From the IMG/VR virus record IMGVR_UViG_3300026076_000002: a stretch of DNA of 64,000 bases. One strand, 5' to 3'. The translations under genes and the position numbers were made by a program. Positions 19,801-58,925 of this stretch are shown piece after piece. Origin of the DNA: a virus. Numbering within the stretch: the first letter of the stretch is position 1; the number at the start of each line of letters is the position of its first letter. The notes beneath the pieces are model-generated. The model saw only the letters and a list, made by a program, of their open reading frames with translations, was not told the DNA's origin and made no database searches.

Positions 19801-22800
19801 GTACCATCCTTCCAAGGACGTAGAAACACTGACATACTTGACTTTAGGCCAAGAGTTGCTAATTACACAGGTAGTAAGTCTCCTTTTGAGTTTGAAGCAA
19901 GAGATTTCAGTTCTGGCGGTCAGATACCAAATGTTATTGTATCCGATGAGAACTGCTTATTCGATTACAACTACTATCAACCAAGGATTGATAGACTTTA
20001 TGTTAACAAGAATAAGACCTTCACAGTTAACCAAGGTGAACCATCTGATAAACCAGTTGCACCTGAGAAGATTGACACTTCATTTGAACTTGCTACCATT
20101 GTTTACAAACCTTATGTTATTGACGTAACTAAGGATGTAGTAATACAATTAAAGGCAAACAGACGCTACACCATGAAGGATATTGGTGGTCTGGAAGATC
20201 GTATTGAGAATCTAGAATACTATACATCATTATCTCTACTAGAATCTAAGACAGAATCACTACTTATTCAAGATCCTGATACAGGACTTGATAGGTTTAA
20301 GTCTGGATTTGTAGTTGATAACTTTGATACTAAGCAGTTATCTGATACTGAACCCAAGCATGATGTTGCTAGTGGTGTATTAGTTCCTCAACGTTACTTT
20401 GATACTGTTGACTTATTAGTAGGTTCTGAATCATTAATTGGTGCTACAGGTACACCAGACCTTAGTGTTGACCCTAGATATGCACAAGATTTAGGATCAC
20501 CAAATATCACTAAGGATAATAATAATGTGATGCTGTCATATAGCGAGACAGATGATAGAGTACAACCATTTGCTTCTAGAGTAGAAAATATAAACCCATA
20601 TACTGTCTTTGACTGGAAAGGTGTAATGACCTTGAATCCAGAATCTGATGTATTCATTAGGTCAGAGTCTGTATCATCTGATGGTGGATTTGGATTCAAT
20701 AATACTACTATAACCACAGAACGTAATATTACTGATATGCGTTCTCAGAATATTGCATTTACTGCTTCTAGACTGAAACCTGGCACTGAGCACTTTGCTT
20801 CATTTTCCAACGTAGATCTAAGTGGTGAACGTGCATTAGTAGTTCCTAAGTATCTTGAAGTTACACCTGTACAAGGTGCATTCCAGATTGGAGAAACTAT
20901 TATAGGTAAAGCAATAGGTACTCAAGATAGTAATAGTATTGCTGATATCAGATTTAGACTTGCACAACCAAACCATAAAGATGGTCCTTTTAATGCTCCT
21001 TCATTAACACTTGCCAAGTCTCCTTACAGTGATACTACATTAGCAGCATCTTATAGTGATACATCAACTATTCTCAACATTGATATAAACAGTCTTAACC
21101 AAAAGTCTGATGAAAGATTCTATGGTTTTGTTACTGTTGGCATGCAGTTAGTTGGTGAAACAACTGGTGCAGAAGCAACTATAAGTGCTGTACGTTTAAT
21201 TTCAGATTCTAATGGTGCTTTATTAGGTTCTATACATTTACCACCTGATAATCCATCATTTGAGAATGGTACAAATACTGCTGTATTGGTGTCAACTAAG
21301 GCGAATGATAAGATACCTGGACGTAAGACTTCTAGTGCTACTGCTAACTTTACATCAAGAGGAACTCTTGTTACAGAGACTACGATAGTAAGAACTGCAC
21401 CACCCCCACCTCCACCACCAATTATTATAATAATAGAACCGCCAGCACCCCCCGATCCCCCACCTCCACCACCGCCACCAGAGCCTGAGATAGAGGATGA
21501 TGATGACCCATTGGCACAGAGTTTCCAAGTAGAGGAACCTAATGGTATATTCATGACATCTGTTGACCTTTACTTCCAAAGTAAGGGTGCAACTGCTCCT
21601 GTGGAATTAAGGATAGTTACATTGGAAAATGGATATCCTACAAGGAAGATGATGAAGAATGCTTCTGTAACATTAGAACCTGAAGCAATTGAAGTATCAA
21701 ATGATGCGTCTGTATTAACAAACTTTAAGTTTCCTAATCCAATATACCTCCCTTCTGGTGAGTATGCATTTGTAGTCATCACAACAACTGATGAGTACAA
21801 CTTGTGGATCTCTCAAGTTGGTGAAGAGGATATTAAGACAAGAAACCTACCTGAATTACAGAAGGTTATTATTGACAAGCAACCAACTCTAGGTTCTCTA
21901 TTCAAGGCACAGAATGCTTCCACATGGACTGCATCTCAACTTGAAGACCTTAAGTATACATCACATAAAGCGAAGTTCGTTACAGAAACTGCTGCTTTCA
22001 GATTGTATAACCCAGAACTTAGAACGTTCGCTGATAGAAATAGACTTAAGGAAAATCCAATTGATATCTTCTCTAAGAGGATAACTCTAGGTTTAACCTC
22101 ATCTATAACATATGCTAACAACCCAGATATAGTTGTTGGTACACAAATCAAACAGGAGAATAGATCTTCTACTGGATTTGTTGAAAGAGTTAATGGTCCT
22201 ATGGGACTACATGATACTGGTATCAATATCACTAAGGCTGGTATTGGATACTCAGCAGGTACTTACGGTAGTGTAAACTTCATTACTAAGACAGGTTCTG
22301 GTACTGGTGCTGTTGGTATAGTAACTGTTTCTGCTGGTGGTATAACCAAGGTATGTGTTACCAATTCTGGTACAGGATACAATGTTGGTGATACACTGAC
22401 TGCTGAATTAGGAACAACTGGTGCAAATTCTGTATTAACTGTTGGAGTAGTTACTGCTACTAACCAATTAGTTCTTGCTAATTGTGAAGGAGTTGACTTC
22501 AATAGTTCAGATCAGTTACAGTATGTTGTTGAATCAAGTGGTGCTACAAATACACTAACATCTATAGTTCCAGCAACAATCAATGTTAACTCAGATGAGT
22601 TTGATGGTAAGCACTTCAGGGTATCTCATGATAACCATGGTATGCATGCTGAAAACAATAGAGTTGAAATTATAGGTGTATCTGGTGATTCTATCCCAAC
22701 TAAAATTACTGCTGGTTATGCAGTAAGTTCTACTGATGCTATTGGTATTGGTAATTCTATGGGATTCAACTGGTTTGAAGGGGCACAAGTTGAACCAAGC

Positions 22801-29663: not shown

Positions 29664-30011
29664 ATGGATCCAGAAGTACAAGCATTATTAAACGTATATC
29701 AGAAACGTTTGAGTGATTCACAAGCACAGTCTATTGCATATGAAGCAAAGATAATGGTGTTGAATACTCAGATACAGCAGATGGGAGAAACAATAACTCA
29801 ATTACAATCAGCACCCCCACCCCCACCAGTACCAGCACCAGTTGCAGTAAGTAGGAGTCCTATTATGCAACCAGAACCTGAACCTACACCTGAACCACCA
29901 AAGGTTAAGGCAGTACCTGCATCTAAGGCAAAGAAAGCACCTAAGAGTAGGACGTTAAGAAATCAAAAACCTGCTGCGAAGAGTGCTGCTGCTAATGCTG
30001 GAGAATTTTAA
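29664..30011 (+). CDS. coiled-coil + Pro/Lys-rich protein ending in NAGEF
   Basis: Heptad-like N-terminal half, then PPPPPVP/EPEPTPEPP, then a basic tail. Confidence 0.7.
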   Translation: MDPEVQALLNVYQKRLSDSQAQSIAYEAKIMVLNTQIQQMGETITQLQSAPPPPPVPAPVAVSRSPIMQPEPEPTPEPPKVKAVPASKAKKAPKSRTLRNQKPAAKSAAANAGEF

Positions 30012-30753
30012 AGAAGAACAATTAATATTTTACGTAGCAATACCTGGCAGTGGTTGGTCAAAACTATCACTGCTACTATCTTGCTGTAAAAAATTAAATC
30101 TTAATAATACTGACAGGTCTATAGAAAGACAGGAATGTGGTAAGAATGGAGTACCTGAAATAATACATCATAAAGGTGCTTACTGGGATCCTATGATGGA
30201 GTTTGGTGATGGGTTTGATGATATTGGTAAGAACTATACTAAGCAAGAGTTTATAGAGGAATGCTTAAAACCATTTAAAGAACATGATGATAGGAACTAT
30301 CTTATCAGATCTCATTTCTTTGCCGAGACTCATAACCTTAATTGGTTAACAGAGAACTTCCCTAACAATAAGATTATATGTGTTCTTAGAGAAAGGCAGT
30401 TAAGTTTAGAAGGTTGGTATTCTGGTATGACCTTTACTGGCAACTATCCTCAGTACAAAGCATGGATGGAATGGGAGCATAGACATGATGATGACCACCC
30501 ATCACATAAAAAGAAACTATGGTCTTTGATACAAAGACATGATAAGATGTTAAGGCAATGGGTATTGGAAAATGATAGTAGGGTATATGTAATAAATCCT
30601 AATAGAAGATTCTTAAATGATCTAGACTATTCTTGGGATAGAGAAGGCATAGAAGAATATAATAAACTGATGCTAATACACCAGTTTTATAAATGTGATT
30701 ATCCACATTACGATTCACCTTTTGTATTATACAACTGTAACGACTTATGGTAA
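29995..30753 (+). CDS. sulfotransferase-fold protein A
   Basis: IFYVAIPGSGWSKL (5'-PSB-like loop), LIRSH, IICVLRE (3'-PB-like); paralog of the next gene; ATG start at 29995 chosen. Confidence 0.6.
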   Translation: MLENFKEEQLIFYVAIPGSGWSKLSLLLSCCKKLNLNNTDRSIERQECGKNGVPEIIHHKGAYWDPMMEFGDGFDDIGKNYTKQEFIEECLKPFKEHDDRNYLIRSHFFAETHNLNWLTENFPNNKIICVLRERQLSLEGWYSGMTFTGNYPQYKAWMEWEHRHDDDHPSHKKKLWSLIQRHDKMLRQWVLENDSRVYVINPNRRFLNDLDYSWDREGIEEYNKLMLIHQFYKCDYPHYDSPFVLYNCNDLW

Positions 30754-31523
30754 GAGATGAGCAATTAGTATTCTTTCTTGGTATACCAGGATCAGGATGG
30801 GCAAAGATAGACTCTTTGTTGAGGTGTTGTAGTAACTTTAAATTTAATATGTCTGACTACAACGAAGATCGTTGTATGAAGCATGAAGGAAGATATTACG
30901 TTGAACATAAGGGTCATTTCATAGGACCTGGTATGACATATGGTGAGAAGTTTGATGATATACCTGAGAATTATACTAAGGAAGAGTTTATACAAGAATG
31001 TATTAGACCGTATGAGGATATTAATGATAATGATAACTATATGATTAAGTGTCACTGGTTCTGTGAGGAACATAATATACGTTGGTTGTTTAAACATTTT
31101 CCCAATAATAAGTACATATGTGTACTAAGGGATAGAGACCTCTGTGATGACCGTTGGCTGACCTCTATGACGTTTGATAAGGATTACCCTAGATATACTG
31201 CTTGGATGGTTAAGGACGATCCTGACGAGTCTGCTGGTGTAGGTAATCACTGTAAGGAGAATGAAGATAACTTTAAAGAGATAAACCATAGACACAATGT
31301 ACAGTTAAGAGCGTTTGTAAGACGTACAAAGAACTCTGTTATTATATCTCCTACTAGGTTTACTTTAGGTAAGATGGGGTTTGTGTGGGATCAGAATGGT
31401 GAGTTTGAATACACTGCATATATAAGAAACTACTGCGTAGATTATTCAATTTATACCAGATCCCCCAGTTGGGATACTGCTATTGCATTTATTAATTGTG
31501 AGGATGAAATTGGTTATGGATAA
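30747..31523 (+). CDS. sulfotransferase-fold protein B (paralog of A)
   Basis: VFFLGIPGSGWAKI, MIKCH, YICVLRD; shares HKG, FDDI..NYTK.EFI.EC and WL..FPNNK motifs with A. Confidence 0.6.
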   Translation: MVRDEQLVFFLGIPGSGWAKIDSLLRCCSNFKFNMSDYNEDRCMKHEGRYYVEHKGHFIGPGMTYGEKFDDIPENYTKEEFIQECIRPYEDINDNDNYMIKCHWFCEEHNIRWLFKHFPNNKYICVLRDRDLCDDRWLTSMTFDKDYPRYTAWMVKDDPDESAGVGNHCKENEDNFKEINHRHNVQLRAFVRRTKNSVIISPTRFTLGKMGFVWDQNGEFEYTAYIRNYCVDYSIYTRSPSWDTAIAFINCEDEIGYG

Positions 31524-32688
31524 ACCAACATTGTTCATGTGTATAGGTACAGGTTGGAGTGGTACAAGTCCACTGTACTATACTTTAGGAGATTGGAATA
31601 GATATTGTCATTGTGGACATTTAAAAGAAAACAAATATCTAGAGCACATATATCATTATAGTATTGGAGATTTTTATACTTTAGATAAAAAGAAGGTAAC
31701 ATTTCGTAGAGTAATGCATGAGACCTTCCGTGATGATCCAGATAATGAAAAATTTATGGGGTTTGGTTTAAGAGATAGACCAGCACAGGTGATGTATACA
31801 TCAGGTGCTAATGCTCATTGGGATAAAGAATTTGTAGATGATTTCTTCACACAACCACATACATGGGAAAAATATATTAACTACTATAAGACGCATTGGG
31901 AGGCAGTAGTTCAGAATGGGGAATATAAAGCAGTATCAGATTTTTCAGTTAATAACATTTATTTTCCAGAAGACTATGTACAGGAAATAGCAAGAGAATT
32001 AAAACCACATTTTAATGTTAAGATAATTATAACGTGTAGGGATCCTGTTAGAAGGGCATGGTCTAAGAATCAATTTAGATGGTTCCAAAGAAAGAAACGT
32101 GCTGGATGTCAAGATCCTTGGCATATGTTTTGGCATGGTATTCTGAGTAAAGATAGACATTTATGTGGTTATCAGATGGATGTTGTAACTTTATATACAG
32201 AAGGTTATAAAAGATGGTCTGAAGCGTTTGGTGAAGAAAATGTCCATATGACAGTGATGGAAGAACTATGGGAACGTAATGGTGACAAATGGGGTGGTAA
32301 GGAAGCGATGGAAAAACTATCAGATTTTATAGGATATAAGATAGATGATATGTTTCCAAATGTTTACGTTCCTGAGATGGGATCTAAAGCACCTAAACTT
32401 AAAAATCTGTCAGACCAGTGGATGAGTGACGTACTAGATCTAAGTTATGATCAACAGCAAGCAGCTAGATGTATAATGAATGAGGCATATACTGAGTGGG
32501 AACGTGTGTTTGGTTCTATACCAAAAGCATGGATGACTATAGATAAAGTTGAAGTTCCTAAGTTAGATGACATGACTACAGAAGAAACTTCAAAAGCACT
32601 TGAAGATATAATGAAAATTGATCCTGGATGTAGACCTACATCCAGTAAAGGTTTACAAATGTTAGCAGACAATGAGTGGCACACCTAA
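31516..32688 (+). CDS. sulfotransferase-family protein C
   Basis: LFMCIGTGWSGTSPLYYTL..KE, DFS and KIIITCRDPVRRAWS match the heparan/LPS-type sulfotransferase PSB and PB motifs. Confidence 0.8.
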   Translation: MDKPTLFMCIGTGWSGTSPLYYTLGDWNRYCHCGHLKENKYLEHIYHYSIGDFYTLDKKKVTFRRVMHETFRDDPDNEKFMGFGLRDRPAQVMYTSGANAHWDKEFVDDFFTQPHTWEKYINYYKTHWEAVVQNGEYKAVSDFSVNNIYFPEDYVQEIARELKPHFNVKIIITCRDPVRRAWSKNQFRWFQRKKRAGCQDPWHMFWHGILSKDRHLCGYQMDVVTLYTEGYKRWSEAFGEENVHMTVMEELWERNGDKWGGKEAMEKLSDFIGYKIDDMFPNVYVPEMGSKAPKLKNLSDQWMSDVLDLSYDQQQAARCIMNEAYTEWERVFGSIPKAWMTIDKVEVPKLDDMTTEETSKALEDIMKIDPGCRPTSSKGLQMLADNEWHT

Positions 32689-33206
32689 TGGATTCGTATT
32701 TTAATGGAGTTTGGCAAGACCAAGATTTTAAATCTCTTAAGTATTCTGGCTATCAGTTGGTCGATTATGTTAATGCTAAAAAACCTACTAGGGTATTAGA
32801 TGTTGGGTGTGGATTTAATAAATTCAAAGGTAAAATAGATCACCTTTGGGGTATAGATCCATACAACGATGCTGCTGATGTTAAGTGTTCTATCGAAGGA
32901 TACGATGGTCCTAGGGTAGATATTGCTTTATGTTTAGGTTCTATTAACTTTGGTGACGAAGAAACTATAGACCATCAGATAGAAATATTAGATAATATAT
33001 GGATGAAAGAATGTATCTTTAGAGTCAATCCTGGTCTAACACATACATGGGTAGACAAGTCAGACATAGATGGAGTTGTTTGGTATCCATGGAATAAGGA
33101 AAAGGTATATGAAATTGCAAAACAATATAAATATAACGTAGACCGCTTTGAAAAGGAATACACCATTCACGGTCATTTACGGTATTATTTTGTTTTTACT
33201 AAATAA
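32688..33206 (+). CDS. class I SAM-dependent methyltransferase
   Basis: RVLDVGCGFN motif I, GIDP, DIALCLGSINF; TAATG overlap with the upstream gene. Confidence 0.8.
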   Translation: MDSYFNGVWQDQDFKSLKYSGYQLVDYVNAKKPTRVLDVGCGFNKFKGKIDHLWGIDPYNDAADVKCSIEGYDGPRVDIALCLGSINFGDEETIDHQIEILDNIWMKECIFRVNPGLTHTWVDKSDIDGVVWYPWNKEKVYEIAKQYKYNVDRFEKEYTIHGHLRYYFVFTK

Positions 33207-33250
33207 TAGCGTAGATACTACATCCCCTGTTTTATAAAACACACGGAGTA
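33198..33250 (+). promoter_or_regulatory. late promoter and leader of the di-iron gene
   Basis: ACTAAATA 33198-33205; TACTACATCCC; palindrome TGTTTTATAAAACA; SD-like ACGGAG 33243-33248. Confidence 0.65.
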
Positions 33251-33257
33251 AAAACAA

Positions 33258-33928
33258 ATGTTATCAGGACAAGAGTTCGTAAAGAAGATCAAAGAAGAGA
33301 ATAAGTCTCTTTTTGATTCATCACGTGAAAACGTACGTAACTTCTTTGCATCAAAGCCTAGCGATGAGTACCTTGTAGAGCACTTCACTGGCCGTATGGT
33401 TAATGAAGCTCAGAACATGAAGGCTATCGCTGCTGAAGTTGCTTCTTCAACACCTGCTACACATAGTGTACAGGATCTTGAGCTTCTTTCAAAGCAAGCA
33501 CAGGACGAAGCTAAGCACTTCCGTATGGTTAAGGAAGTTATCGAGCACATCACAGGATCACCTGTAGATGTTGAAGCTGCATTCGCTGCTGACGCTGCTA
33601 ACCCACAAGCTAAAGGTGCTTCACTTCTTGAGAAGTATTCTGCTTCTACAGACGAAGCTGCACTTGCTGCTTACCAGTTGGTTGCAGAAGGAAGAGCAGA
33701 AGCTGTTTGGCAAGAAATGGCTGAGTGCGTTGAAGATCAGTATATCGCTCACAGATATGCTACAATCGGTAGAGACGAAGGTTTCCACTCTGCTTTAGGT
33801 GGACGTAAGCTTGCTACTCTAGTAGAAGGTGCTTCTGAACTTCAGAGCCGCATTCTTGACATGGTTGCTCAAATGAGAATCGACCTTGCTGAGATTTCTG
33901 CTAAGAACACAGCAATCGCAGAGGTTGG

Positions 33929-33932
<4 letters not shown>
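33258..33932 (+). CDS. ferritin-like di-iron carboxylate protein
   Basis: Ligand pattern MVNE...QDEAKH...VAEGRA...RDEGFH (E, ExxH, E, ExxH); helical Ala/Glu-rich composition. Confidence 0.85.
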
Positions 33933-35304
<1,372 letters not shown>

Positions 35305-35305
35305 G

Positions 35306-36067
35306 CTAACAATGGCATGGTTTATCACCACAGCAATCTAAGTAGTCACCACGTGCAGGTTTCTCCCACAATTCCTTATCTACAGGATTAGTTGGGAATG
35401 GTATTGCTGTTTTATTACCATCATCCAATATTTGTTCTTCTACTGGAGAAATGTATTTAAGGTTAGCATCATATCTTAATATTTCTTCTAACCTTTCATC
35501 ATACCATGCTACAGGAATAGGTAACTCAAGAGTCTTAAGGTACTCTTCTTTGTAAAGATATAACAATTCATAACTTAAGAATATAGGATTCTCGAAATTA
35601 GGTAATTGATCTAGGAAATGTCTGCAAGTATTCTCTTCACGTATTCTAAACTGTTGATGGTCTAATATATTTTGATCTCTTCCTATAACACATATCTGAG
35701 TTTCTAGTCCACACAGTTCACAATTCATGGCAAACTGCATGATATTAGGTGACCACTTAGTTCCTTTAGATTCTATACCTAGTGGTACACTGATACTTGT
35801 AAAGTAGTAGTCACTCTGTGACCAATCAAACTCCTTTAGTGTACTAGGATCTCTCCAGTATGCTGCAAATGGTTCTGTTAACCTATGTGCTTCCCAATAG
35901 TTATCAAGTAAACTCTTCCAACCAAATACATCTTCATGTAGGGAAAAGACTTTTGACCATAGATGATTTCCAGAACCTTGGGGTCCAGTTAAGATAACTA
36001 TTTTCTTCTTTTTATTGGAAGATTTAACTGCCGTTGTTAAGTCGTTAGTTGAGAACACATATTTCAT
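35306..36067 (-). CDS. sulfotransferase/P-loop-fold protein E
   Basis: IVILTGPQGSGNHLWSKVFSLH..GW.SL..NYW..EPFA.YW..VIGRDQNI; paralog of D. Confidence 0.6.
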   Translation of the reverse strand: MKYVFSTNDLTTAVKSSNKKKKIVILTGPQGSGNHLWSKVFSLHEDVFGWKSLLDNYWEAHRLTEPFAAYWRDPSTLKEFDWSQSDYYFTSISVPLGIESKGTKWSPNIMQFAMNCELCGLETQICVIGRDQNILDHQQFRIREENTCRHFLDQLPNFENPIFLSYELLYLYKEEYLKTLELPIPVAWYDERLEEILRYDANLKYISPVEEQILDDGNKTAIPFPTNPVDKELWEKPARGDYLDCCGDKPCHC

Positions 36068-36081
36068 TGTATACACTACTA

Positions 36082-36110
36082 ATTATAACACATAAATAAT
36101 CTCATATCAA
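36082..36110 (-). promoter_or_regulatory. sigma70-type (early) promoter for the E-orf-pebS-D operon
   Basis: Minus strand TTGATA-N17-TATAAT with extended TG. Confidence 0.8.
36091..36098 (+). promoter_or_regulatory. putative late promoter for the second fibre gene
   Basis: CATAAATA, nested in the spacer of the opposite-strand sigma70 promoter. Confidence 0.6.
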
Positions 36111-36159
36111 CGTCTGTCTTTACAGATGGTATGTCTTCTCTTCTTTAAGAGTCTTGTGA

Positions 36160-37374
36160 ATGGCACAACCTGTATTAAAGTTTAAAAGGTCTTCCGTTGA
36201 AGGCAAGGTTCCAGCAGTAAGTAGTATAGAACGTGGTGAATTTGCCATTAATACCTATGATGGTAAGGTCTATATTCTTAGGGATCAGTCATCGGTAGGA
36301 ATTGCTACTACAACTGTATCAGTTAACCCATGGGTAGAAACCTCTGGTGTTGGTGAACTGGTAAGTTATAGTGGTGAGGTGGCTTGTGGTGCAGCATTAT
36401 CAGTTACTGGAGATTTAAGGGTAACTGGTGTTACAACTATAAGTGGTCTAACATACCCTGCAAGTGACGGGAGTGCTTTACAGACTCTTCAGACAGATGG
36501 TAGTGGAAATTTAAGTTTCGGTGATCTAGCAGGGGATTTAACAGGTAATGTGACAGGTAATGTCACAGGAAGATTGATAGGTAATGTAGAAGGTAATATT
36601 TTCTCATCAGGTATATCTACAGTATCAGGGTTTACATTCCCTAGTAGTGACGGTACAACTAATGAAAGTTTAGTTACTGATGGTAATGGTAATTTAAGTT
36701 TTAAGACTATAGAAGGTGGAGGTGGTGCTGGTATAACCACCCACACAGATGCATATTATACAGCAACAGAGTTCCAAGACGAATTCGATACACCACATCC
36801 ATTTGTTGCTGACATAGGTACTAGGACAGTACAGGTATTTCTTAATGGTATTAAGTTAAGAAATAGTCAATTTGTAAATGATCCACCTGCTGACTTTACG
36901 TTATCAGGAACTAAGACAGTTACACTAGCAAGTAGTTGTAATGCTGGTGACAGAGTACAGGTCACTGTATTCTATCATAATGAATTTGAAGAAGATTTAC
37001 TTACTGCAACAACAGAAGGTCAAACTGAATTTGACCTAACTGGTGGTGATAAAACAAATGTGAAATGCTATGTCAATGGTGTTAAATTAAGATCAACTGA
37101 CTTTACTATAACTAGAAAAATAACTCTAGGGCAGGGTTGTAATGCTGGTGATGAGGTGGACATCATATCAGAGACTGCTGAAGATTACTTCACTGCTACT
37201 CAAAACCAAATTGAATTTTCACCTAGTAATGTTGACATACAAGAGCATAACCTAATGGTTTTTGTTAATGGTGTCAGATTGGAAAATAATGATTACACTA
37301 AAAACTCCCCCACAATAACACTAACAGAAGGTTTGAACAAGGGTGATCACCTTGATGTGGTGTACAGGGCATAA
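36160..37374 (+). CDS. short fibre/virion protein (404 aa)
   Basis: N-terminal LKFKRSS..GEFAINTYDG (T4 gp36/gp37-type start); TGNV repeats; three V[FY][LV]NG[IV][KR]L domains. Confidence 0.75.
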   Translation: MAQPVLKFKRSSVEGKVPAVSSIERGEFAINTYDGKVYILRDQSSVGIATTTVSVNPWVETSGVGELVSYSGEVACGAALSVTGDLRVTGVTTISGLTYPASDGSALQTLQTDGSGNLSFGDLAGDLTGNVTGNVTGRLIGNVEGNIFSSGISTVSGFTFPSSDGTTNESLVTDGNGNLSFKTIEGGGGAGITTHTDAYYTATEFQDEFDTPHPFVADIGTRTVQVFLNGIKLRNSQFVNDPPADFTLSGTKTVTLASSCNAGDRVQVTVFYHNEFEEDLLTATTEGQTEFDLTGGDKTNVKCYVNGVKLRSTDFTITRKITLGQGCNAGDEVDIISETAEDYFTATQNQIEFSPSNVDIQEHNLMVFVNGVRLENNDYTKNSPTITLTEGLNKGDHLDVVYRA

Positions 37375-37395
37375 ATACAAAAAAGTAGGCTAACA

Positions 37396-38244
37396 ATGGC
37401 ACAACCGTCTACAAGACAAGAATTAGTTGATTATGCTAAGAGGCAGCTAGGTTATCCTGTCTTGGAGATCAACCTTGCTGATGAACAGATCGAAGATCTG
37501 ATGGATGATGCTATCCAGTTATTTCAGGATAGACACTTTGATGGTATTGAAAAAATATACATGAAGCATAAAGTTACTCAAGACTTTATTGATTCAATTG
37601 AAGCAAGAGGTGGATCTAAAACTATTGGTGTTACTACATCTACAGCAGAAGCACAACTAACTGGACAGGTAGGTATAACTACATTCTCATACGAAGAGAA
37701 CCAAAACTTTATTCAAATACCAGAACAAGTTATAAGTATAGTTAAGGTATGGAAGATTGATAATAGAGCAATTAGCACTAACATGTTTAGTGTTAATTAT
37801 CAGTTATTCTTGAATGAGATATACTGGTTTACTGCTGCTGAGATGATTAACTATGCTATGACAAAGACGTTCTTGGAAGATATTAACTTCCTACTACGTC
37901 CTGAGAAGCAGATTAGATATAACAGAAGACAAAATAGATTGTATATTGATACTGATTATTCCAGTATGCAAGTAGATGACTATATTATTATTGAATGTTA
38001 TAGAGCATTAGATCCTAATATGTACCCTAATGTATACAGGGATCCATTCTTGAAGAAGTACTTTACTTCTCTTATGAAGAAGCAATGGGGTCAAAACCTT
38101 ATTAAGTTCCAAGGAGTTAAACTTCCTGGTGGAGTAGAACTTAATGGAAGACAGATATATGACGATGCATTAGGAGAAATAGAAAAAATTGAAGAGAAGA
38201 TGGCATGGGAGTATGAGATCCCTGCACTTGATACGATTGGATAA
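37396..38244 (+). CDS. g13: neck protein gp13
   Basis: LGYPVLEINLADEQIED and KQWGQNLIKFQGVKLPGGVELNG motifs; CATAAATA at 37370. Confidence 0.95.
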   Translation: MAQPSTRQELVDYAKRQLGYPVLEINLADEQIEDLMDDAIQLFQDRHFDGIEKIYMKHKVTQDFIDSIEARGGSKTIGVTTSTAEAQLTGQVGITTFSYEENQNFIQIPEQVISIVKVWKIDNRAISTNMFSVNYQLFLNEIYWFTAAEMINYAMTKTFLEDINFLLRPEKQIRYNRRQNRLYIDTDYSSMQVDDYIIIECYRALDPNMYPNVYRDPFLKKYFTSLMKKQWGQNLIKFQGVKLPGGVELNGRQIYDDALGEIEKIEEKMAWEYEIPALDTIG

Positions 38245-39650
38245 TGGCATTAAATCCCTTTTTTACTCAAGGCAATCAGTCTGAGCAATCACTTGTTCAA
38301 GAATTGATTGACGAACATATTAAGATGCATGGCATAGAGTTTACCTATATGCCTAGAATCTATGTGAATACAAAGACTATAATAAGGGAAGTCAGTTCAT
38401 CTAAGTTTGATAAAGCATTTCCTATTGAAGGATATATTGAGAACTACCAAGGGTTTGGAGACAATTATAATATACTTACTAAGTTTGGTGTAAGGTCAAC
38501 TGCTGAGATTAGTATTGTTATATCTCAGGCAAGATTTGAAGAGTATATAACACCGTTGTTAACTGGTGGTGTTACTGGATTAAGTAACGATCCTGTTAGA
38601 CCTTTGGAGGGAGACTTAATCTATTTCCCATTGGGAGACATGCTTTTTGAGATTAAGTATGTTGAACATGAGCAACCATCATTCTACCAGTTACAAAAGA
38701 ACTATACTTATAAGTTAAAATGTGAACTCTTCGAGTACGAGGACGAGCAAATCGATACTGGTATTGGTTCTATTGATGATGACTTTGAGACTATAGGATA
38801 CAATGCAACAATGCAGTTGCTAGGAATAGGTACACAAAGTGAAGCTACTGCAACTATAGTTAACGGTGGTCTGTCACAAATCAACTTAGTATCTGGTGGT
38901 ACAGGATATACCAGAGCACCAAATATAGTAATACAACCACCTAGCTGGGGAATAGGTCATACTGCAACTGCTGTTGCAATAACTACCCAGATGTCAGATG
39001 GTAAGTATTCACTAACGGATATACAAATAACTGATTCTGGATCTGGTTATTCTACTTCTTCAAATCCACCAACTATTCAAATTGTAACTGATGATGGTGA
39101 AGGTGCTGGAGCACAAGCACAAGCTATTGTTAGTAATGGGACTGTTGGTAAGGTTGTTATGACTGAACATGGTTCAGACTATGTACTAACACCAGTTGTT
39201 ACGTTTAGTTCTCCACCATCACCAGGCGTTACTGCTGAAGGTTTTGCTAATCTTGATGCTAATGGTAAGGTAGGATCTATTAGTATTGTTAATTCTGGAT
39301 CAGGATATGCCAGTGCTCCAACTGTCACAGTGTCTGCTGCTGGAACTATAGGAGTGGGTACATATTTCAGTGGTGATCTTATAACTGGTAGTCTTAGTAA
39401 TAACAAGGCATTTGTTACTAATTGGAACAATCCTACTATGACTTTAACTATTAAGAGTCTCAGTGGACACTTCACTCCTGGTGAATTAATTGTAGGTACA
39501 TCTAAGACAACAGGTGAGTCTATAGCATATAGACTAAATACCATCAACTATGATGATGACGATGTTATTGACAACAACCAAGAAATTGAGGTTGCTGGTG
39601 AAGAGATCATTGATTGGTCTGAACAGAACCCATTTAGTGAGAGACCATAA
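38244..39650 (+). CDS. g14: neck protein gp14
   Basis: MALNPFF..EQSLVQELI, RPLEGDLIYFP and C-terminal WSEQNPF motifs; Gly-rich insertion. Confidence 0.93.
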   Translation: MALNPFFTQGNQSEQSLVQELIDEHIKMHGIEFTYMPRIYVNTKTIIREVSSSKFDKAFPIEGYIENYQGFGDNYNILTKFGVRSTAEISIVISQARFEEYITPLLTGGVTGLSNDPVRPLEGDLIYFPLGDMLFEIKYVEHEQPSFYQLQKNYTYKLKCELFEYEDEQIDTGIGSIDDDFETIGYNATMQLLGIGTQSEATATIVNGGLSQINLVSGGTGYTRAPNIVIQPPSWGIGHTATAVAITTQMSDGKYSLTDIQITDSGSGYSTSSNPPTIQIVTDDGEGAGAQAQAIVSNGTVGKVVMTEHGSDYVLTPVVTFSSPPSPGVTAEGFANLDANGKVGSISIVNSGSGYASAPTVTVSAAGTIGVGTYFSGDLITGSLSNNKAFVTNWNNPTMTLTIKSLSGHFTPGELIVGTSKTTGESIAYRLNTINYDDDDVIDNNQEIEVAGEEIIDWSEQNPFSERP

Positions 39651-40699
39651 TGTTAGGTAATTATTTTTATCATAGTACGGTAAGAAAGTCAGTTATTGCT
39701 TTCGGTACACTGTTTAATAACATCAGTATACAGCATACTAATGATGCTACTGGTGAAGTTATCAGTAAGATCAAGGTTCCTATTGCCTATGGTCCTATTC
39801 AGAAGTTCTTAGCAAGAGTAGAACAGCAGCCAAATTTCGCTAGAGATGCTGCTATCACACTTCCAAGGATGTCTTTTGAAATTGTAAATTATAAGTATGA
39901 TGCTTCTAGAAAGACTGCCCCTATTACAAAATTCTGTCTACTTACTCCAACAGAGAAGACAAAAATTAAGAAAGTTTTTATGCCAACCCCCTACACCATT
40001 GGGTTTAGGTTGAGTTTTGCTGCAAAGATACAGGATGATTCGCTACAAATATTAGAACAGATACTACCTCATTTCCAACCATCATATAAGGTTAGTATTA
40101 ATATGCTGGAAGATGCTGAAGAGATTAAAGATATTCCAATTACACTAACTAATATAACCTTTAGGGATGAGTATGAAGGTGACTTTACTGAACGTAGAGC
40201 AATTGTATATGAGTTGGACTTTGACTTAAAAACATTCTTCTATAGCGAAGTACCTACAGATGAGAGTGGTGGCATTATTAAGAAGGTTAAGATTGATTAT
40301 GCTTCTGCTATTAGAGCACCTAGAGAACAAAGGTATGTAGTTACACCAGCGGCTGTCAAGGATTATAACCAAGATCAAACGCAGTCATTGGCAGCAAATC
40401 TTGATATGAATAAGACTTTGATGGAAGTTACTACTAACACTGGTTTAACAGTTGGAAGATATATACAAATAGGTGACGAAGTTTTACGCATCAATGAGGT
40501 GAATGGTACTAATGTATTAGTATCACGAGCACAGTATGGTTCTACTATGAGAGAACACTACCAAGGTGACGTTATTAATCAAATCACTATACAAGATGAT
40601 GCCCTAATTGAAATTGGTGATGATTTCGGATTCAACGAAACCAGAACTTTCTATCAAGACGGTAAAGTCTATAGCAGTTCGCAAGGAATAGATGTCTGA
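39650..40699 (+). CDS. g15: tail sheath stabilizer gp15
   Basis: YFYH..RKSVIAFGTLFNNI, KVPIAYGPIQKFLAR, ITLPRMSFE and QILEQILPHFQP motifs. Confidence 0.95.
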   Translation: MLGNYFYHSTVRKSVIAFGTLFNNISIQHTNDATGEVISKIKVPIAYGPIQKFLARVEQQPNFARDAAITLPRMSFEIVNYKYDASRKTAPITKFCLLTPTEKTKIKKVFMPTPYTIGFRLSFAAKIQDDSLQILEQILPHFQPSYKVSINMLEDAEEIKDIPITLTNITFRDEYEGDFTERRAIVYELDFDLKTFFYSEVPTDESGGIIKKVKIDYASAIRAPREQRYVVTPAAVKDYNQDQTQSLAANLDMNKTLMEVTTNTGLTVGRYIQIGDEVLRINEVNGTNVLVSRAQYGSTMREHYQGDVINQITIQDDALIEIGDDFGFNETRTFYQDGKVYSSSQGIDV

Positions 40700-41120
40700 T
40701 AACAAAGGATTTGATGCAATTAATAGAGCACTTGACGTAAAAGCAGAGATCGTCAAGGAAGGTGGTTGTGTCAAAAAATCTGATAAAGCACAACGTATAG
40801 AGAAAGATGATCCCACTAAGGATTACGAATATACCAGAGCACAACTGTATAATCTAATCGAGAAAGGACATGAAGCACTTAACGGTATTCTAGATGTTGC
40901 TGCTGATAGTCAGCATCCTAGAGCATATGAGGTTGCTGGTCAGTTAATCAAAAGTGTTGGAGATGTAACAGACAAGTTACTTGATTCTCAGAAAAAAATG
41001 AAAGACATGGATGAGGATAAGTCAGGTCCAAAACAGGTTACAAACAATTCTTTGTTCGTTGGTAGTACATCCGACCTACAAAAAATGTTAAAGGAGATGA
41101 GTAAGAAGGATAATAAATAA
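40692..41120 (+). CDS. g16: terminase small subunit gp16
   Basis: DYEYTRAQLY, HPRAYEVAGQLIK and NNSLFVGSTSDLQK motifs. Confidence 0.95.
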   Translation: MSDNKGFDAINRALDVKAEIVKEGGCVKKSDKAQRIEKDDPTKDYEYTRAQLYNLIEKGHEALNGILDVAADSQHPRAYEVAGQLIKSVGDVTDKLLDSQKKMKDMDEDKSGPKQVTNNSLFVGSTSDLQKMLKEMSKKDNK

Positions 41121-41141
41121 AGAACAGTCTGATTTACTATC

Positions 41142-41489
41142 ATGTTTAATAAGGGGATTATTAAAGTTCTACAAATAGTGGATCAGAAAAATATTTCGGA
41201 GGATTTAGTATCAGAAAAATTTGGGATCGTATCGACTGGACGAGCAGGTAGTTTCTCTGCCCAAAAGATGCCGTCTGCTGCTGATACAGCAGCAGCGACT
41301 GCGGCTGAAAAGAATGCTAAACAAAAGCAAAGGGCAGCTGGAGCCAGTAAACTGATGGGAAGAGCAAAGGCTGCATTAGATGTAGTCAGGACTGTCAATC
41401 AGAATATCTCTAGAGTCTACGAACCGAAAGAGTCGTTTACTTTTAAAAATTTTAGATGGATAACAAAGAAAGAGGACATGACGAATTAA
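41142..41489 (+). CDS. hypothetical basic Ala-rich protein
   Basis: 115-aa ORF after AATAAATA (41112-41119) in the g16-g17 gap. Confidence 0.6.
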   Translation: MFNKGIIKVLQIVDQKNISEDLVSEKFGIVSTGRAGSFSAQKMPSAADTAAATAAEKNAKQKQRAAGASKLMGRAKAALDVVRTVNQNISRVYEPKESFTFKNFRWITKKEDMTN

Positions 41490-41575
41490 AACGTCAGTCT
41501 GAAATCAACCGTTTATCTGATTTAACTAGACAACATGATGCTAAATACTTGACCAATCCAGCAAAATATAAGTGA
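41456..41575 (+). CDS. possible 39-aa protein (MDNKERGHDELKRQ...)
   Basis: Read manually; below the ORF track cutoff. Confidence 0.4.
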   Translation: MDNKERGHDELKRQSEINRLSDLTRQHDAKYLTNPAKYK

Positions 41576-41704
41576 TCTATACTGCCAACCCAAAGGTTTC
41601 TTTTATAATAGACCCTTTGGGTTCTGGCAAACTAATCAAATTCGTTCATCCTATTGACTTAAGGAGTGCGAGTCAGAAACTAGAATCTTTACAGAGAAAA
41701 GTTA

Positions 41705-43357
41705 ATGCCTCAGTCAAATGACATTTACCTTGGTAACCCCAACCTAAAGAAAGCAAATACACAGGTTGAGTTTACTAAAGAACATATAGAAGAGTATTTG
41801 AAGTGTAAGGATGATCCTGTATACTTCACCCAAAGTCATATTAAGATCGTTTCTCTTGATGAAGGTTTGGTTCCATTTAAAATGTGGGACTTTCAGGAGA
41901 AATTAATTAGAAACTTCCACGGAAATAGATTTAATATCTGTAAGATGCCTCGTCAGACTGGTAAGTCTACAACTGTGGTATCTTATCTTCTACACTATGC
42001 TATCTTTAATGATAACGTAAACATTGCTATACTAGCAAACAAGGCACAAACTGCTAGAGACCTATTGGGCAGACTACAACTTGCCTATGAAAACCTACCC
42101 AAGTGGATGCAACAAGGAATTATTGCATGGAACAAGGGTTCTATGGAATTAGAAAATGGATCCAAAATTATCGCTGCATCTACTTCTGCATCTGCTGTCA
42201 GGGGTGGATCTTACAATATTATCTTCCTCGATGAGTTTGCGTTCGTTGCAAACCACCTCGCAGACGACTTTTTTGCGTCTGTTTATCCTACTATATCTTC
42301 AGGTCAGAAGACCAAGGTAATCATAGTATCTACTCCACATGGTATGAATCACTTCTACCGTATGTGGCATGATAGTGAACGTGGTAAAAATGAATATTGC
42401 CCTACAGAAGTTCATTGGTCTGAAGTACCAGGTAGGGATGCTAAATGGAAAGAACAAACTATATCAAACACATCTAAGTCTCAGTTCCAAGTTGAGTTTG
42501 AATGTGAGTTTCTAGGATCTGTTGATACATTGATAGCACCATCAAAGTTAAAGACGTTAGTATACGAAGATCCAATAATGCAGAATGGTAGTCTGTATGT
42601 ATATGAACATTGTAGACCAAATCATGATTATATTGTAACAGTTGACGTTGCACGTGGTGTGTCGAAAGATTACAGTGCCTTTATAGTTTTTGATATTACA
42701 GAATTTCCATATAAAGCAGTAGCACGATACCGTAATAACAGTATCAAACCTATGCTGTTTCCATCTATCATACATGAAGTAGCATGTGCATATAATATGG
42801 CATGGATACTATGTGAGGTAAATGATATAGGAGATCAGGTTGCGTCAATCTTAAACTTTGATCTGGAATATGAAAATGTTTTAATGTGTGCTATGCGTGG
42901 TAGAGCAGGTCAGGTAGTTGGTCAAGGGTTCTCTGGCAACAAGACTCAGTTAGGAGTCAAGATGTCAGTGACAACAAAGAAAGTCGGGTGTTCTAACCTT
43001 AAAACTTTGATAGAAGAAGACAAACTTATACTATGCGATTATGATATGATAAGTGAACTTACTACGTTTATACAGAAGAAACAATCCTTTGAAGCAGAGG
43101 AAGGATGTAACGATGACCTTGCTATGTGTATGGTTATTTTCTCTTGGTTAGTTGCTCAAGATTACTTCAAAGAGATGACAGATCAGGACGTAAGAAGACG
43201 CATTTATGATGAACAAAAGAATCAAATAGAACAAGATATGGCCCCATTTGGGTTCGTTACTGATGGTTTAGAGGAGGAAATAACCGTTGATACCAACGGT
43301 GATGAGTGGCATTTGGATGAATATGGAGACATGTCATACATGTGGGATTACAAGTAA
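41705..43357 (+). CDS. g17: terminase large subunit gp17
   Basis: YLGNPNLKKAN, PRQTGKST (Walker A), IIFLDEFAF (Walker B), nuclease DDLAM. Confidence 0.97.
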   Translation: MPQSNDIYLGNPNLKKANTQVEFTKEHIEEYLKCKDDPVYFTQSHIKIVSLDEGLVPFKMWDFQEKLIRNFHGNRFNICKMPRQTGKSTTVVSYLLHYAIFNDNVNIAILANKAQTARDLLGRLQLAYENLPKWMQQGIIAWNKGSMELENGSKIIAASTSASAVRGGSYNIIFLDEFAFVANHLADDFFASVYPTISSGQKTKVIIVSTPHGMNHFYRMWHDSERGKNEYCPTEVHWSEVPGRDAKWKEQTISNTSKSQFQVEFECEFLGSVDTLIAPSKLKTLVYEDPIMQNGSLYVYEHCRPNHDYIVTVDVARGVSKDYSAFIVFDITEFPYKAVARYRNNSIKPMLFPSIIHEVACAYNMAWILCEVNDIGDQVASILNFDLEYENVLMCAMRGRAGQVVGQGFSGNKTQLGVKMSVTTKKVGCSNLKTLIEEDKLILCDYDMISELTTFIQKKQSFEAEEGCNDDLAMCMVIFSWLVAQDYFKEMTDQDVRRRIYDEQKNQIEQDMAPFGFVTDGLEEEITVDTNGDEWHLDEYGDMSYMWDYK

Positions 43358-43369
43358 TAACGCATTTTT

Positions 43370-43377
43370 ACTAAATA
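43370..43377 (+). promoter_or_regulatory. putative late promoter
   Basis: ACTAAATA upstream of g18; GGGAG SD before the start. Confidence 0.65.
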
Positions 43378-43414
43378 ATTTATAGTCAAAATAGGGTTAC
43401 CGCAGGGAGTTAGA

Positions 43415-45628
43415 ATGGCACTTCAGTTAGCATCCCCAGGAATTAATGTACGTGAGGTTGATCTAACACGTGGTGGCGTTAATGCATCATTAAACGTTGC
43501 TGCTGGTCTAGCAGGTCCTTTTCAAAAAGGTCCTGTTAACGAGATCATTAGAATCACAAACGAGAACGAACTCGTAGAAACCTTTGGTGGTCCTGGTGCA
43601 GGGATCACTGATTTCCATTATGAAACCTGGTATGCTGCATCAAATTACCTATCATATGGTGGACAACTAGAGGTTGTCCGTGCTGGTGGTGGAGAACTAA
43701 ACAACGCAAATGCTGCACCTTCGGGTACACCATCTACTGCGTTGCTTATAGAAAATTATGATGATTACAGCAACAACCATAGCACATCGTCTGATTGGTA
43801 TTTCGCAGCAAAAAACCCAGGTTACTGGGGAGAAAACATTAAGGTTGCAGTCATAGATGCTGCTGCCGATCAAATAATTAACGGAGTATCCGTTAACCAA
43901 GTATCCACATACGGCAATTCAGTCAGCAGTGGGTTCACCTATAACGTAGGTTATGGTGTTACTCAGAAGTTAACTGGAAACATTATCGGTGTTGGAACAG
44001 TTACCTCACCTGGTGACAACGATTACATTAAAGGAATCGTCACTGAGGTTGGTACAGACAGTATTTCAGTCAAGGTAGTTTCGGTTGTACAATCTGGTAC
44101 AGAGACTGCTGTTAGATACCAAGAAAATTCACAGTACTCATTCAATACCTCCAACCCTATTGGTATTGCATCTGCTTCTGTGGGTGATGATAAGAAAGTA
44201 TATGGTACTTCTTTATCAGTTTCTGATTGGTACAATAATCAAGACATTCTTACTTCTGCTGCTGATGGTGGATCAGATCTACTTACACTTAAGTGGAGAT
44301 CTGTACTACCTAAACCAAGAGTAAATGGATACTCTGCTGACAGGGGTGGAGACAATGACTCCCTTAACGTAGTTGTTATTGACGTTGACGGTAATGTCAA
44401 CGGTACACCTGCTACTATCCTAGAGAAGTTCCCGAACTTATCTAAGGCAAGTGATTCAGAGGTGTCACCACAGAAGTCAATATACTATAAACAGTTCTTG
44501 GCAGATAACTCAGCATATGTTTATGCTGGTACATCACCTGCGGTAACTGATTCCCATTATGAAACATCACCTATACCTAACGGGTTCTCCTCTGGAGTTA
44601 CACCACTAGGATCTGGGGTTGGTGCATGGGGTCAAGCAGCAAAAGATATTAATTTCAATTCACTAGGAAACGTTAAGTATAGTCTTACTGCTGGTAAGGA
44701 TTATCAAGGCATAGGAAACTTCAATGCTCCATTAGGAGATATTCTTACTGCTTACGATAAACTACAAGATCCAGTTAACTCTGATATCAGATTCTTGTTA
44801 CAGGGTGGAGCACATAAGACTAAGGAAGAAGAGCAAGCAAAGGCACAGAAACTTATATCCATCTGCGAATTCCGTAAAGATTGTATAACATTCATATCAC
44901 CTGATAGGGGATCTGTTGTTAACATCACGAGTGAATCACAACAGACAGAGAATGTACTTTCATTCTTCAGTCCATTAAGTTCATCTTCTTATGCAGTCTT
45001 CGATAGTGGTTATCAATACACTTACGACAGATTCAATAAGAAGTTCTGCTACTTACCAATATCAAATGATATCGGTGGACTCTGCGTTAGAACAGATAGA
45101 AACCAGTTCCCATGGTTCTCACCTGCTGGAACATCTAGAGGTTCATTAAACTTCGCAGTTAAATTAGCATACAATCCTGGTCAGGATGCAAGAGATAGGT
45201 TGTATTCAAATAGAATCAACCCAGTTATTGCAAGTCCTGGTGCAGGTATTATTTTATTCGGTGACAAGACTGGTCTTGCTTATGAGTCTGCATTTGACAG
45301 AATCAACGTAAGAAGATTATTCATCACCATTGAAAAGGCAATTGAACATGCTGCTAAAGCACAACTCTTTGAACTTAACGATCCAGGTACAAGATCTAAC
45401 TTCTTGAACATCGTTGAACCATACCTCAGAGATGTACAAGCTAAGCGAGGCATCAATGAGTTCCTAGTTGTTTGTGACGAATCAAACAACACACCAGACG
45501 TTATTGATCGCAACGAATTTGTTGCTGACATTTTCGTCAAACCAGCAAGATCAATCAACTTCATTGGTCTAACATTCGTTGCTACGAGAACTGGCATCAG
45601 TTTCTCCGAAGTAGTCGGCACTGTGTAA
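43415..45628 (+). CDS. g18: tail sheath protein gp18
   Basis: SPGINVREVDLT, PWFSPAG, AFDRINVRRLF and KPARSINFI motifs. Confidence 0.97.
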   Translation: MALQLASPGINVREVDLTRGGVNASLNVAAGLAGPFQKGPVNEIIRITNENELVETFGGPGAGITDFHYETWYAASNYLSYGGQLEVVRAGGGELNNANAAPSGTPSTALLIENYDDYSNNHSTSSDWYFAAKNPGYWGENIKVAVIDAAADQIINGVSVNQVSTYGNSVSSGFTYNVGYGVTQKLTGNIIGVGTVTSPGDNDYIKGIVTEVGTDSISVKVVSVVQSGTETAVRYQENSQYSFNTSNPIGIASASVGDDKKVYGTSLSVSDWYNNQDILTSAADGGSDLLTLKWRSVLPKPRVNGYSADRGGDNDSLNVVVIDVDGNVNGTPATILEKFPNLSKASDSEVSPQKSIYYKQFLADNSAYVYAGTSPAVTDSHYETSPIPNGFSSGVTPLGSGVGAWGQAAKDINFNSLGNVKYSLTAGKDYQGIGNFNAPLGDILTAYDKLQDPVNSDIRFLLQGGAHKTKEEEQAKAQKLISICEFRKDCITFISPDRGSVVNITSESQQTENVLSFFSPLSSSSYAVFDSGYQYTYDRFNKKFCYLPISNDIGGLCVRTDRNQFPWFSPAGTSRGSLNFAVKLAYNPGQDARDRLYSNRINPVIASPGAGIILFGDKTGLAYESAFDRINVRRLFITIEKAIEHAAKAQLFELNDPGTRSNFLNIVEPYLRDVQAKRGINEFLVVCDESNNTPDVIDRNEFVADIFVKPARSINFIGLTFVATRTGISFSEVVGTV

Positions 45629-45643
45629 TAGGAGGAACTACTA

Positions 45644-46270: not shown

Positions 46271-46294
46271 TAAATATCAGAAAGGATAATATGA

Positions 46295-47965: not shown

Positions 47966-47999
47966 GCTAAATATATAATATACACTTCAATAGTATATT

Positions 48000-49395: not shown

Positions 49396-49405
49396 TTTAT
49401 AGATT

Positions 49406-49413
49406 TATAAATA
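49406..49413 (+). promoter_or_regulatory. late promoter
   Basis: Perfect T4 consensus TATAAATA upstream of g22. Confidence 0.8.
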
Positions 49414-49448
49414 ATAATATCATTTTCTAGAATTTTTCGGATCTAAAA

Positions 49449-58912: not shown

Positions 58913-58925
58913 ATTTAAAACAATC

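Follow-up and report, generated by a model that had tools for sequence, protein, structure and literature searches.

The di-iron gene and its leader

The window, meaning here the whole 64-kb stretch of DNA analysed (64,000 nucleotides of IMG/VR virus record IMGVR_UViG_3300026076_000002), belongs to a marine T4-like myovirus. It encodes a T4-like structural set recognised with Pfam and PHROG, comprising gp23, the gp22 scaffold, prohead protease, portal, sheath and tube, and likewise both terminase subunits, a head–tail adaptor and the late sigma factor gp55. We focus on a gene for a putative di-iron carboxylate protein (the di-iron gene), and on an 11-nucleotide (nt) sequence, TACTACATCCC, that occurs in its leader and again in front of g23, the gene for the major capsid protein. 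Relatives from the databases are coded L001 and so forth, and RNA libraries X1, X2, X3 and X5. The closest public record by gp23 is the single-cell-derived ‘Marine virus AG-345-D19’ (L001, 99.6% identical), and the second-closest is Synechococcus phage ACG-2014f (72%). The features of the two loci, and the gene for the late sigma factor, are as follows.

33198–33205, plus strand: late-promoter box ACTAAATA (T4-type, N-A/C-TAAATA), overlapping the stop codon (33204–33206) of the upstream open reading frame (ORF)
33212–33257, plus strand: predicted 5′ untranslated region (UTR) of the late di-iron mRNA, about 46 nt, its start placed by the T4 rule of about 6 nt past the box
33216–33226, plus strand: first copy of the 11-mer TACTACATCCC, starting 42 nt before the di-iron start codon
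33228–33241, plus strand: perfect 14-bp A/T-rich palindrome TGTTTTATAAAACA, between the 11-mer and the ribosome-binding site
33243–33248, plus strand: ACGGAG, with the Shine–Dalgarno GGAG (33245–33248) 9 nt before the ATG at 33258
33258–33932, plus strand: putative di-iron carboxylate protein, 224 residues, with conserved ligands, a structural model, the top codon adaptation and RNA-library contigs
49449–50552, plus strand: g22 scaffold gene, with the canonical late box TTTATAAATAA upstream
50553–50560, plus strand: ATTAAATT, a non-canonical late-like box immediately past the g22 stop
50567–50577, plus strand: second copy of the 11-mer TACTACATCCC, between g22 and g23, starting 27 nt before the g23 start codon
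50581–50586, plus strand: ACGGAG, with the Shine–Dalgarno GGAG 7 nt before the g23 ATG at 50594
50594–52021, plus strand: g23, major capsid protein (Pfam Gp23, 1.2e-148; PHROG major head protein)
55221–55688, plus strand: gp55 late sigma factor, the reader of the late box (phrog_234 late sigma transcription factor, 5e-66)

Exact copies of TACTACATCCC number two in the window, both on the plus strand, and downstream of each come ACGGAG and then AAATG; the single copy with one mismatch (20132–20142, minus strand) lies inside a coding region. No 11-mer stands in front of the other late structural genes of the window (sheath, tube, portal, scaffold). The palindrome separates the 11-mer from the ribosome-binding site in the di-iron leader only, not in that of g23. 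A full GGAG at such a placement was found by eye in few leaders of the window. An earlier note on this DNA, made from the sequence, had drawn attention to the 11-mer, ACGGAG and AAATG before both genes, to the palindrome and to a late box upstream of the di-iron gene; all of these are where it placed them, the box one base from the position that it implied.

A conserved late-promoter box

The motif NATAAATA is established as a late motif in cyanomyoviruses such as S-PM2 and Syn9, and its T4 form is TATAAATA (PMC2984593). The box in front of the di-iron gene shares with T4-type late promoters (gp55/gp33/gp45) an 8-bp A/T sequence that ends in TAAATA and lies close upstream of a gene. The boxes of the window also strongly favour the structural-gene strand (29 TAAATA on the plus strand and 5 on the minus, a called start following within 70 nt for 16 of the 29), and the gene for gp55 is part of the window as well. 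Unlike the usual form, the box of the window lineage has C at its second position (ACTAAATA), and its distance to the ATG is long, at 52 nt, the 16 box-to-start distances in the window spanning 17–61 nt.

IMG/VR holds 126 relatives of the di-iron protein, and the upstream sequence was read in 77. TAAATA lies within 50 nt upstream of the di-iron homologue in 76 of 78 IMG/VR relatives, as against 3.2% of background 50-nt windows. The conserved box, together with gp55 in the window, supports the di-iron gene as a predicted T4-type late gene, whose timing and transcript start we infer from this sequence.

The g23 locus is arranged differently: TAAATA is found within 50 nt in none of the 80 relatives’ leaders compared, and TAAAT in 53 of the 80. 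Expression of g23 may come from the g22 promoter, from a variant late box or from both. Contigs from three RNA libraries bridge the g22–g23 junction, which does not in itself prove a single transcript; g22 and g23 are probably co-transcribed, and the contigs are compatible with a start at the g22 late promoter. The two copies of the 11-mer sit in different transcript contexts, the first about +5 nt into the transcript predicted from the late box by T4 geometry, and the second 15 nt past the g22 stop codon. The TAAAT(T) before g23 usually overlaps the g22 stop codon, as in CAATAAATTAA, CAGTAAATTAA and TAGATTAAATT.

Codon usage and RNA-library contigs

With g23 as the reference, the di-iron ORF has a codon adaptation index (CAI) of 0.784, the highest of 44 ORFs, its neighbours falling at 0.50–0.59 and g23 against itself at 0.737. 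This bears out a judgement by eye in the earlier note that the gene uses g23-like codons, unlike its neighbours. Recoding the protein with the codon usage of the whole window puts this value at z = 7.6, and the gene departs from that usage in, for example, GCT (0.78 versus 0.30), ATC (0.80 versus 0.12) and ATA (0 versus 0.57). The second-highest index, 0.753, belongs to an outer-membrane-protein-like gene at 58899–59300, again far above its neighbours. In five other phages, each measured against its own g23, the di-iron homologue has a CAI of 0.62–0.76 and most flanking ORFs lie at 0.39–0.56, with one large flanking ORF reaching 0.63–0.74 in three of the five.

Most of an 801-nt di-iron stretch is held by 13 RNA-labelled runs from at least six studies, some of them of only 44–115 million letters. 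Four of these runs were aligned to 32500–52400, and three gave the following.

X1: di-iron contig 33155–33982, word depth 13.8; g22–g23 contigs 11.6–13.3
X2: di-iron contig 33208–34137, word depth 16.7; g22–g23 contigs 17.1
X5: di-iron contig 33174–34027, word depth 405; g22–g23 contigs 41–235

The three di-iron contigs cover the whole gene with 0–3 differences from the window; their starts (33155, 33174 and 33208) are contig ends and give no map of RNA ends. Between the di-iron gene and g22, these runs leave most of the 20 kb without a contig or with only short ones of low depth; absent cover has no evidential value and was not counted. X3, labelled a metatranscriptome, spans all 20 kb at an even word depth of about 10, with differences of about 2%; unlike the other three, it seems to represent DNA or a related strain and is uninformative on expression.

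Depths like those of g22–g23 hint at high transcript abundance, in agreement with the promoter box, the binding site and the codon bias. Because the gene has a GGAG site, a g23-like codon bias that is kept in relatives and RNA-library contigs at g22–g23-like depths, it is very probably strongly expressed. The earlier note had proposed that the protein is made late at capsid-like levels through a shared enhancer or processing site; the late box, the codon bias and the RNA-library depths agree with the first part, and the second is not supported by the evidence from relatives given below.

The di-iron protein

The candidate metal ligands are E50, E84-x-x-H87, E144 and E174-x-x-H177, a set seen across 15 family members with identities down to 23%. 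Within these 15, E50, D83, E84, H87, E144 and Y167 are invariant, and D173, E174 and H177 are at least 90% conserved. The AlphaFold2 model, with nine helices and a predicted local distance difference test score (pLDDT) of 91.7, is a confident helical bundle. The conserved ligand set and this model together support a predicted di-iron carboxylate protein, whose family is unclassified and apparently confined to phages. Clustering at 50% identity leaves 71 representatives of this small family among 1.8 billion proteins. Recovered homologues derive from viral contigs and from metagenomes, and viral sequences make up 84–100% of the nearest Atlas clusters. Searching with tblastn found no homologue in the GenBank phage records of the collection searched.

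No curated family in Pfam, PHROG or NCBIfam matches the protein at threshold; sub-threshold Pfam matches of family members are to PaaA_PaaC, DUF455, Rubrerythrin, MiaE and AurF. The automatic Atlas name ‘ribonucleoside-diphosphate reductase family protein’ was rejected, the Pfam match to the small chain of that enzyme having E = 0.11 over about 40 residues. Structural comparison with VIA-align gives whole-length alignments to TenA, CADD, HrmI and UndA, which are heme-oxygenase-like and include di-iron enzymes (Z 15–17), and alignments of about 170–190 residues to aldehyde-deformylating oxygenase (ADO)-like proteins, PaaA and R2lox, which are ferritin-like (Z 13–15). Foldseek E-values for the model are all 0.009 or weaker, and sequence identity to any solved structure is at most 18%. 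The ligands, of EXXH type, follow the pattern of the ferritin-like class, and the predicted fold aligns with both ferritin-like and heme-oxygenase-like folds.

The protein resembles the ferritin-like and heme-oxygenase-like di-iron oxygenases (ADO, PaaA, MiaE and AurF; CADD, UndA, HrmI and BesC) in its E...EXXH...E...EXXH ligands, predicted to sit on four core helices, and in being a single domain of about 220–230 residues, with VIA-align Z 14–17 over 170–210 residues. It differs from them in its capsid-grade expression signals, which are unusual for an enzyme. Its role is most likely oxygen-activating or iron-handling.

T4 internal proteins have an N-terminal targeting peptide that ends in a prohead-protease L/I-x-E site. 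A peptide of this type at the start of the di-iron protein (QEFV...IKE), as might mark the virion cargo that the earlier note thought possible, was considered and rejected: I-K-E at residues 11–13 is not conserved in the family, where Q, T, A, K and others occur, and residues 4–14 form a confidently modelled helix of the fold.

The 11-mer in relatives

The 11-mer is not conserved before both genes in related phages, an absence that the earlier note had named among the findings that would refute its claim of a shared leader element. On the di-iron side, TACTACATCCC precedes the homologue in L002 alone (99% identical) among the 77 IMG/VR relatives read. Metagenome contigs were scanned too, and there L221 and L222 (98–99%) carry it; the remaining relatives are at most 79% identical and have no box. 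The window lineage in this comparison consists of L002/L206, L221 and L222, and the stretch 33212–33257 is identical in L002, L221 and L222. Identity to the window protein falls from 98–99% to at most 79% in IMG/VR and metagenome contigs alike, and neither source holds relatives of intermediate identity (79–98%) in which the origin of the box could be traced. In a di-iron family that is otherwise dense, with freshwater and marine members, the window lineage stands on a branch by itself.

In nearly all the di-iron relatives, a late box (ACTAAATAA, TATAAATAA or the like) forms the end of the upstream ORF, (C)GTAGATAGG or a similar sequence comes next, and the ATG is 21–29 nt past the box. GTAGATA directly past the late box is common to the window and most of these relatives. 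A subgroup (L030, L036, L041, L064, L065, L067 and L078) has long leaders of window-like length, in which the spacer is A/T-rich and the binding site is GGAG. In L036 and L075, ACGGAG occupies the same leader position without the 11-mer, and ACGGAG is therefore no evidence of a link to g23.

On the g23 side, the 11-mer is present in L082 and L083 (99%) among the 80 leaders and is kept in L199 too; 75 further g23 leaders are without it. L001/L084, which are 97–99.6% identical in gp23, have TTACACATCCCGAACACGGAG in place of the 11-mer, and their leader, CTTACACATCCCGAACACGGAG, has lost 1 nt inside the box and gained 1 nt before the ribosome-binding site. More distant g23 leaders are G-poor and C-rich and otherwise different, and ACGGAG is found also in an unrelated group of g23 leaders (for example L125, L127, L132 and L135). 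The AG-345-D19 record (L001) does not extend to the di-iron gene, and a scan for variant, L001-type di-iron leaders returned the known contig only. When window 50562–50586 is set against L001/L084, the deletion and insertion lie 10 nt apart (CTTACTACATCCCGAAACGGAG versus CTTACACATCCCGAACACGGAG) and the total length is kept. Polymorphisms that flank the g23 leader are shuffled between the window and L001/L084 types, which suggests recombination within the population.

The two leaders do not vary together. In the five other phages that have both genes, a phage’s own di-iron and g23 leaders share 5–8 nt, and mismatched pairs share 5–10 nt. Scanning IMG/VR for TACTACATCCC followed after 1–25 nt by ACGGAG gave 59 stretches, four of them in leaders, all of the window lineage; the other matches are coding coincidences of TAC-TAC-ATC-CC, encoding Tyr-Tyr-Ile-Pro.

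Folding of the leaders

The 45-nt di-iron leader folds at −5.4 kcal/mol (z = −1.5), and 16 of 200 shuffles fold equally well. Its minimum-energy fold joins UAC-UCC in the box to GGA-GUA at the ribosome-binding site. The palindrome hairpin alone has −2.5 kcal/mol (z = −0.15) and is no more stable than shuffles. As to the suggestion that the palindrome, if folded, restores a near-g23 spacing, the box does adjoin the binding site in the minimum-energy fold, and the hairpin folds no better than shuffles.

A known precedent for such spacing is found in T4 genes 38 and 25, in which a hairpin between the Shine–Dalgarno sequence and the AUG shortens a spacing of 22–27 nt (PMC3014915). As in those split initiation regions, an intervening hairpin could bring two leader elements to a working distance. 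In contrast to them, the window palindrome lies upstream of the site, consists of A/T only and is no better than shuffles, and the spacing from site to AUG is a normal 9 nt.

These results, with those from relatives, bear on the proposal that UACUACAUCCC and the binding site form a shared cis-element (an enhancer of translation, a site of processing or stabilisation, or one bound by a phage or host factor) that would couple the di-iron protein to capsid production, the hairpin restoring the spacing. It would account for an exact identity in the same order and on the same strand before the first- and third-ranked genes by CAI, for the box adjoining the binding site when the palindrome is folded, and for a leader that is invariant in the four lineage copies. 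Yet the 11-mer is unconserved before either gene and is broken by indels in g23 relatives at 97–99.6%, the five other phages show no co-variation, and the contexts differ, being about +5 of a predicted monocistronic late mRNA in one case and 15 nt past the g22 stop in the other. The hairpin is, moreover, no more stable than shuffles, and no other late structural gene has the box. A shared translational enhancer or processing site, as the earlier note had it, is for these reasons left unsupported, and we regard a working shared element as highly improbable.

The pairing of box and binding site could instead mask the latter: CAUCC of the box would pair with GGAG(UA), and the resulting hairpin would tune or delay translation in the manner of T4 genes e, soc and 49. 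On this reading, such leaders in general should have a pyrimidine box upstream of the binding site. UCC is paired with GGA in the minimum-energy folds of both leaders, and by eye many g23 leaders have CCTT, ACCT or TCC just upstream of AAGG, AGGT or GGA. However, 14 of 35 g23 leaders can form a stem of 4 bp or more with the GG in it, as against 10.6 ± 2.6 with shuffled upstream sequence, and 4 of 74 di-iron leaders can, as against 7.9 ± 2.5 when shuffled; the z-scores of the folds are just −0.1 to −1.5. The 5′ arm would also lie inside the late transcript, where it cannot separate early from late transcripts, unlike that of T4 gene e (PMC3014915). An anti-Shine–Dalgarno box as a general leader feature was accordingly rejected as not enriched over shuffled upstream sequence, and we give masking hardly any credence.

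The palindrome was rejected as a repeated element, being single-copy at up to two mismatches (TGTTTTATAAAACA has no further such copy in the window) and 14-bp palindromes being common in the window, which has 12 perfect palindromes of at least 14 bp (mean 5.2 and maximum 11 in 60 first-order Markov simulations). Several palindromes of the window have restriction-site-like cores (CTTAAG, CATATG, TCATGA, TACGTA, AGATCT, TGATCA and CCTAGG). An Rfam search of both leaders gave no credible family; a match to SNORD126 (E = 0.14) was far under the gathering score and was disregarded.

Interpretation of the shared 11-mer

How much the match means depends on the comparison made. Some common 11-mer is shared by any two of the 55 window leaders in 69% of shuffles, and one with at least five G/C in 8.7%. 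Among the real window leaders, shared strings of at least 11 nt number three: a terminator tail, a late promoter and the TACTACATCCC match. The match is suggestive for the di-iron/g23 pair, and not compelling once the free choice of pair is counted, because the earlier reader could have picked any pair of leaders.

We favour, at a probability of about 0.6, an ordinary T4-type high-output late unit (33198–33932) in which the 11-mer is most likely a coincidence, with no demonstrated role as a common element. The gp55-type late box ACTAAATA would launch a late di-iron mRNA, the 5′ UTR of about 46 nt and the GGAG site 9 nt before the ATG would start translation, and the ‘capsid-grade’ codons of the coding sequence would support a high output of the protein. 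The 11-mer lies in a fast-evolving spacer of the leader, in one lineage only and outside the conserved design, and the coincidence was perhaps aided by both leaders being G-poor.

Several observations weigh against this assessment. For the di-iron/g23 leader pair taken by itself, an 11-mer is shared in 3% of shuffles, and just 0.2% of 2989 real cross-phage pairings of di-iron and g23 leaders reach 11 bases. The 11-mer is C-rich where the equivalent spacer of the di-iron relatives is A/T-rich, and for this reason it looks, from composition, imported or selected and not drifted. The di-iron leader has CACGGAG, like the L001/L084 form of the g23 leader, and a hypothetical g23-like ancestor with both features would match the di-iron leader at 18 of 21 bases. 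The two genes that carry the 11-mer rank first and third by g23-referenced CAI, and the 46-nt leader is unchanged in all four lineage copies, at a divergence too low for this to have much weight. As for high output, the RNA evidence consists of assembled contigs from runs chosen for holding the gene, in which depth is a poor measure of expression, and carry-over of DNA into RNA libraries is possible.

Part of this would be explained by a recent short-patch copy, in which part of the g23 leader (TACTACATCCC, and perhaps CACGGAG as well) was recombined into the di-iron spacer of an ancestor of the lineage. The 14-bp palindrome would later have arisen or been inserted between the halves, and the C-rich, G-poor tract may modestly aid translation with no dedicated factor. 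Such a copy would fit the low pair-specific chance (0.2–3%), the C-rich tract among A/T-rich relatives and the combined match of 11 + 7 bases to the two g23 leader variants. G-poor tracts resembling ACATCC recur in many g23 leaders of relatives (ACCACATCCAATTAAGG in L110/L111 is one), which would point to g23 as the source of any copy, and T4-type phages shuffle short regulatory cassettes by recombination (PMC2839356, PMC4122927). But the identity extends over just 11 nt, the sequence on its 5′ side is dissimilar, and the tracts exchanged in homologous recombination are usually far longer; ACGGAG stands in the di-iron leader of relatives that have no box; no intermediates between 98% and 79% identity show the event; and the chance level corrected for the look-elsewhere effect is p of about 0.09. 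We hold a short-patch copy to be unlikely. In order, then, coincidence is the most likely reading of the 11-mer, a recent short copy is less so and a working shared element is the least.

Among the short regulatory cassettes of T4-type phages are the PeSLs, composites of an early promoter and a stem-loop that occur in many copies in hyperplastic regions and are able to mediate recombination (PMC2839356, PMC4122927). The two leaders resemble them in having a short sequence repeated before different genes of one T4-type genome. They differ in that the window has two 11-nt copies past late-type boxes, not sigma-70 promoters, and shows no promoter–terminator architecture. That the 11-mer and binding site form a portable high-output module, either derived from g23 or recognised by a common factor and setting a capsid-like stoichiometry of the di-iron protein, is in our judgement improbable. 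If it were true, the protein would be a bulk late product, virion-associated or a major intracellular iron-binding pool, in abundant marine T4-like phages.

The leader match has little weight in itself, and it shows how an exact 11-mer between prominent genes misleads when relatives are not consulted. Of more use is the di-iron protein itself, which belongs to no curated family; it occurs in well over a hundred T4-like phage contigs, marine and freshwater, but in no GenBank phage record searched, and marine RNA libraries of at least six studies contain it. Across the family, the gene combines a late promoter with the strongest codon adaptation in its neighbourhood. Should its output truly be capsid-like, infected cells in the iron-poor ocean would contain the protein as a sizeable iron-binding product, and it would merit expression, metal analysis and structure work.

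Neighbouring genes

Downstream, a 209-residue ORF (33929–34558, minus strand) and a PebS/PebA-like ferredoxin-dependent bilin reductase gene (34551–35192, minus strand; PF05996, 1e-17) converge on the di-iron gene. The beta-barrel gene at 58899–59300 (plus strand) is of the cyanophage outer-membrane-protein-like type (PF24653, 5e-43). By sequence similarity, these two recognisable genes, the bilin reductase and the outer-membrane-protein-like gene, point tentatively towards a cyanobacterial host. The 209-residue ORF was considered as a heme oxygenase beside the bilin reductase and rejected, with no Pfam, NCBIfam or PDB sequence match. Its stop codon overlaps that of the di-iron gene (33929–33932), with no terminator between them, and the di-iron RNA-library contigs extend 50–200 nt antisense into it.

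Four ORFs lie upstream of the di-iron gene (29983–33206, plus strand), two with weak sulfotransferase-type Pfam matches and two without any. The matches are of ORF 31483–32688 to Sulfotransfer_1 (E = 0.001) and of ORF 30747–31523 to Sulfotransfer_3 and Sulfotransfer_4 (E = 0.2–0.3). These four ORFs have a CAI of 0.51–0.54 and a G+C fraction of 0.34–0.36, compared with 0.447 for the di-iron gene.

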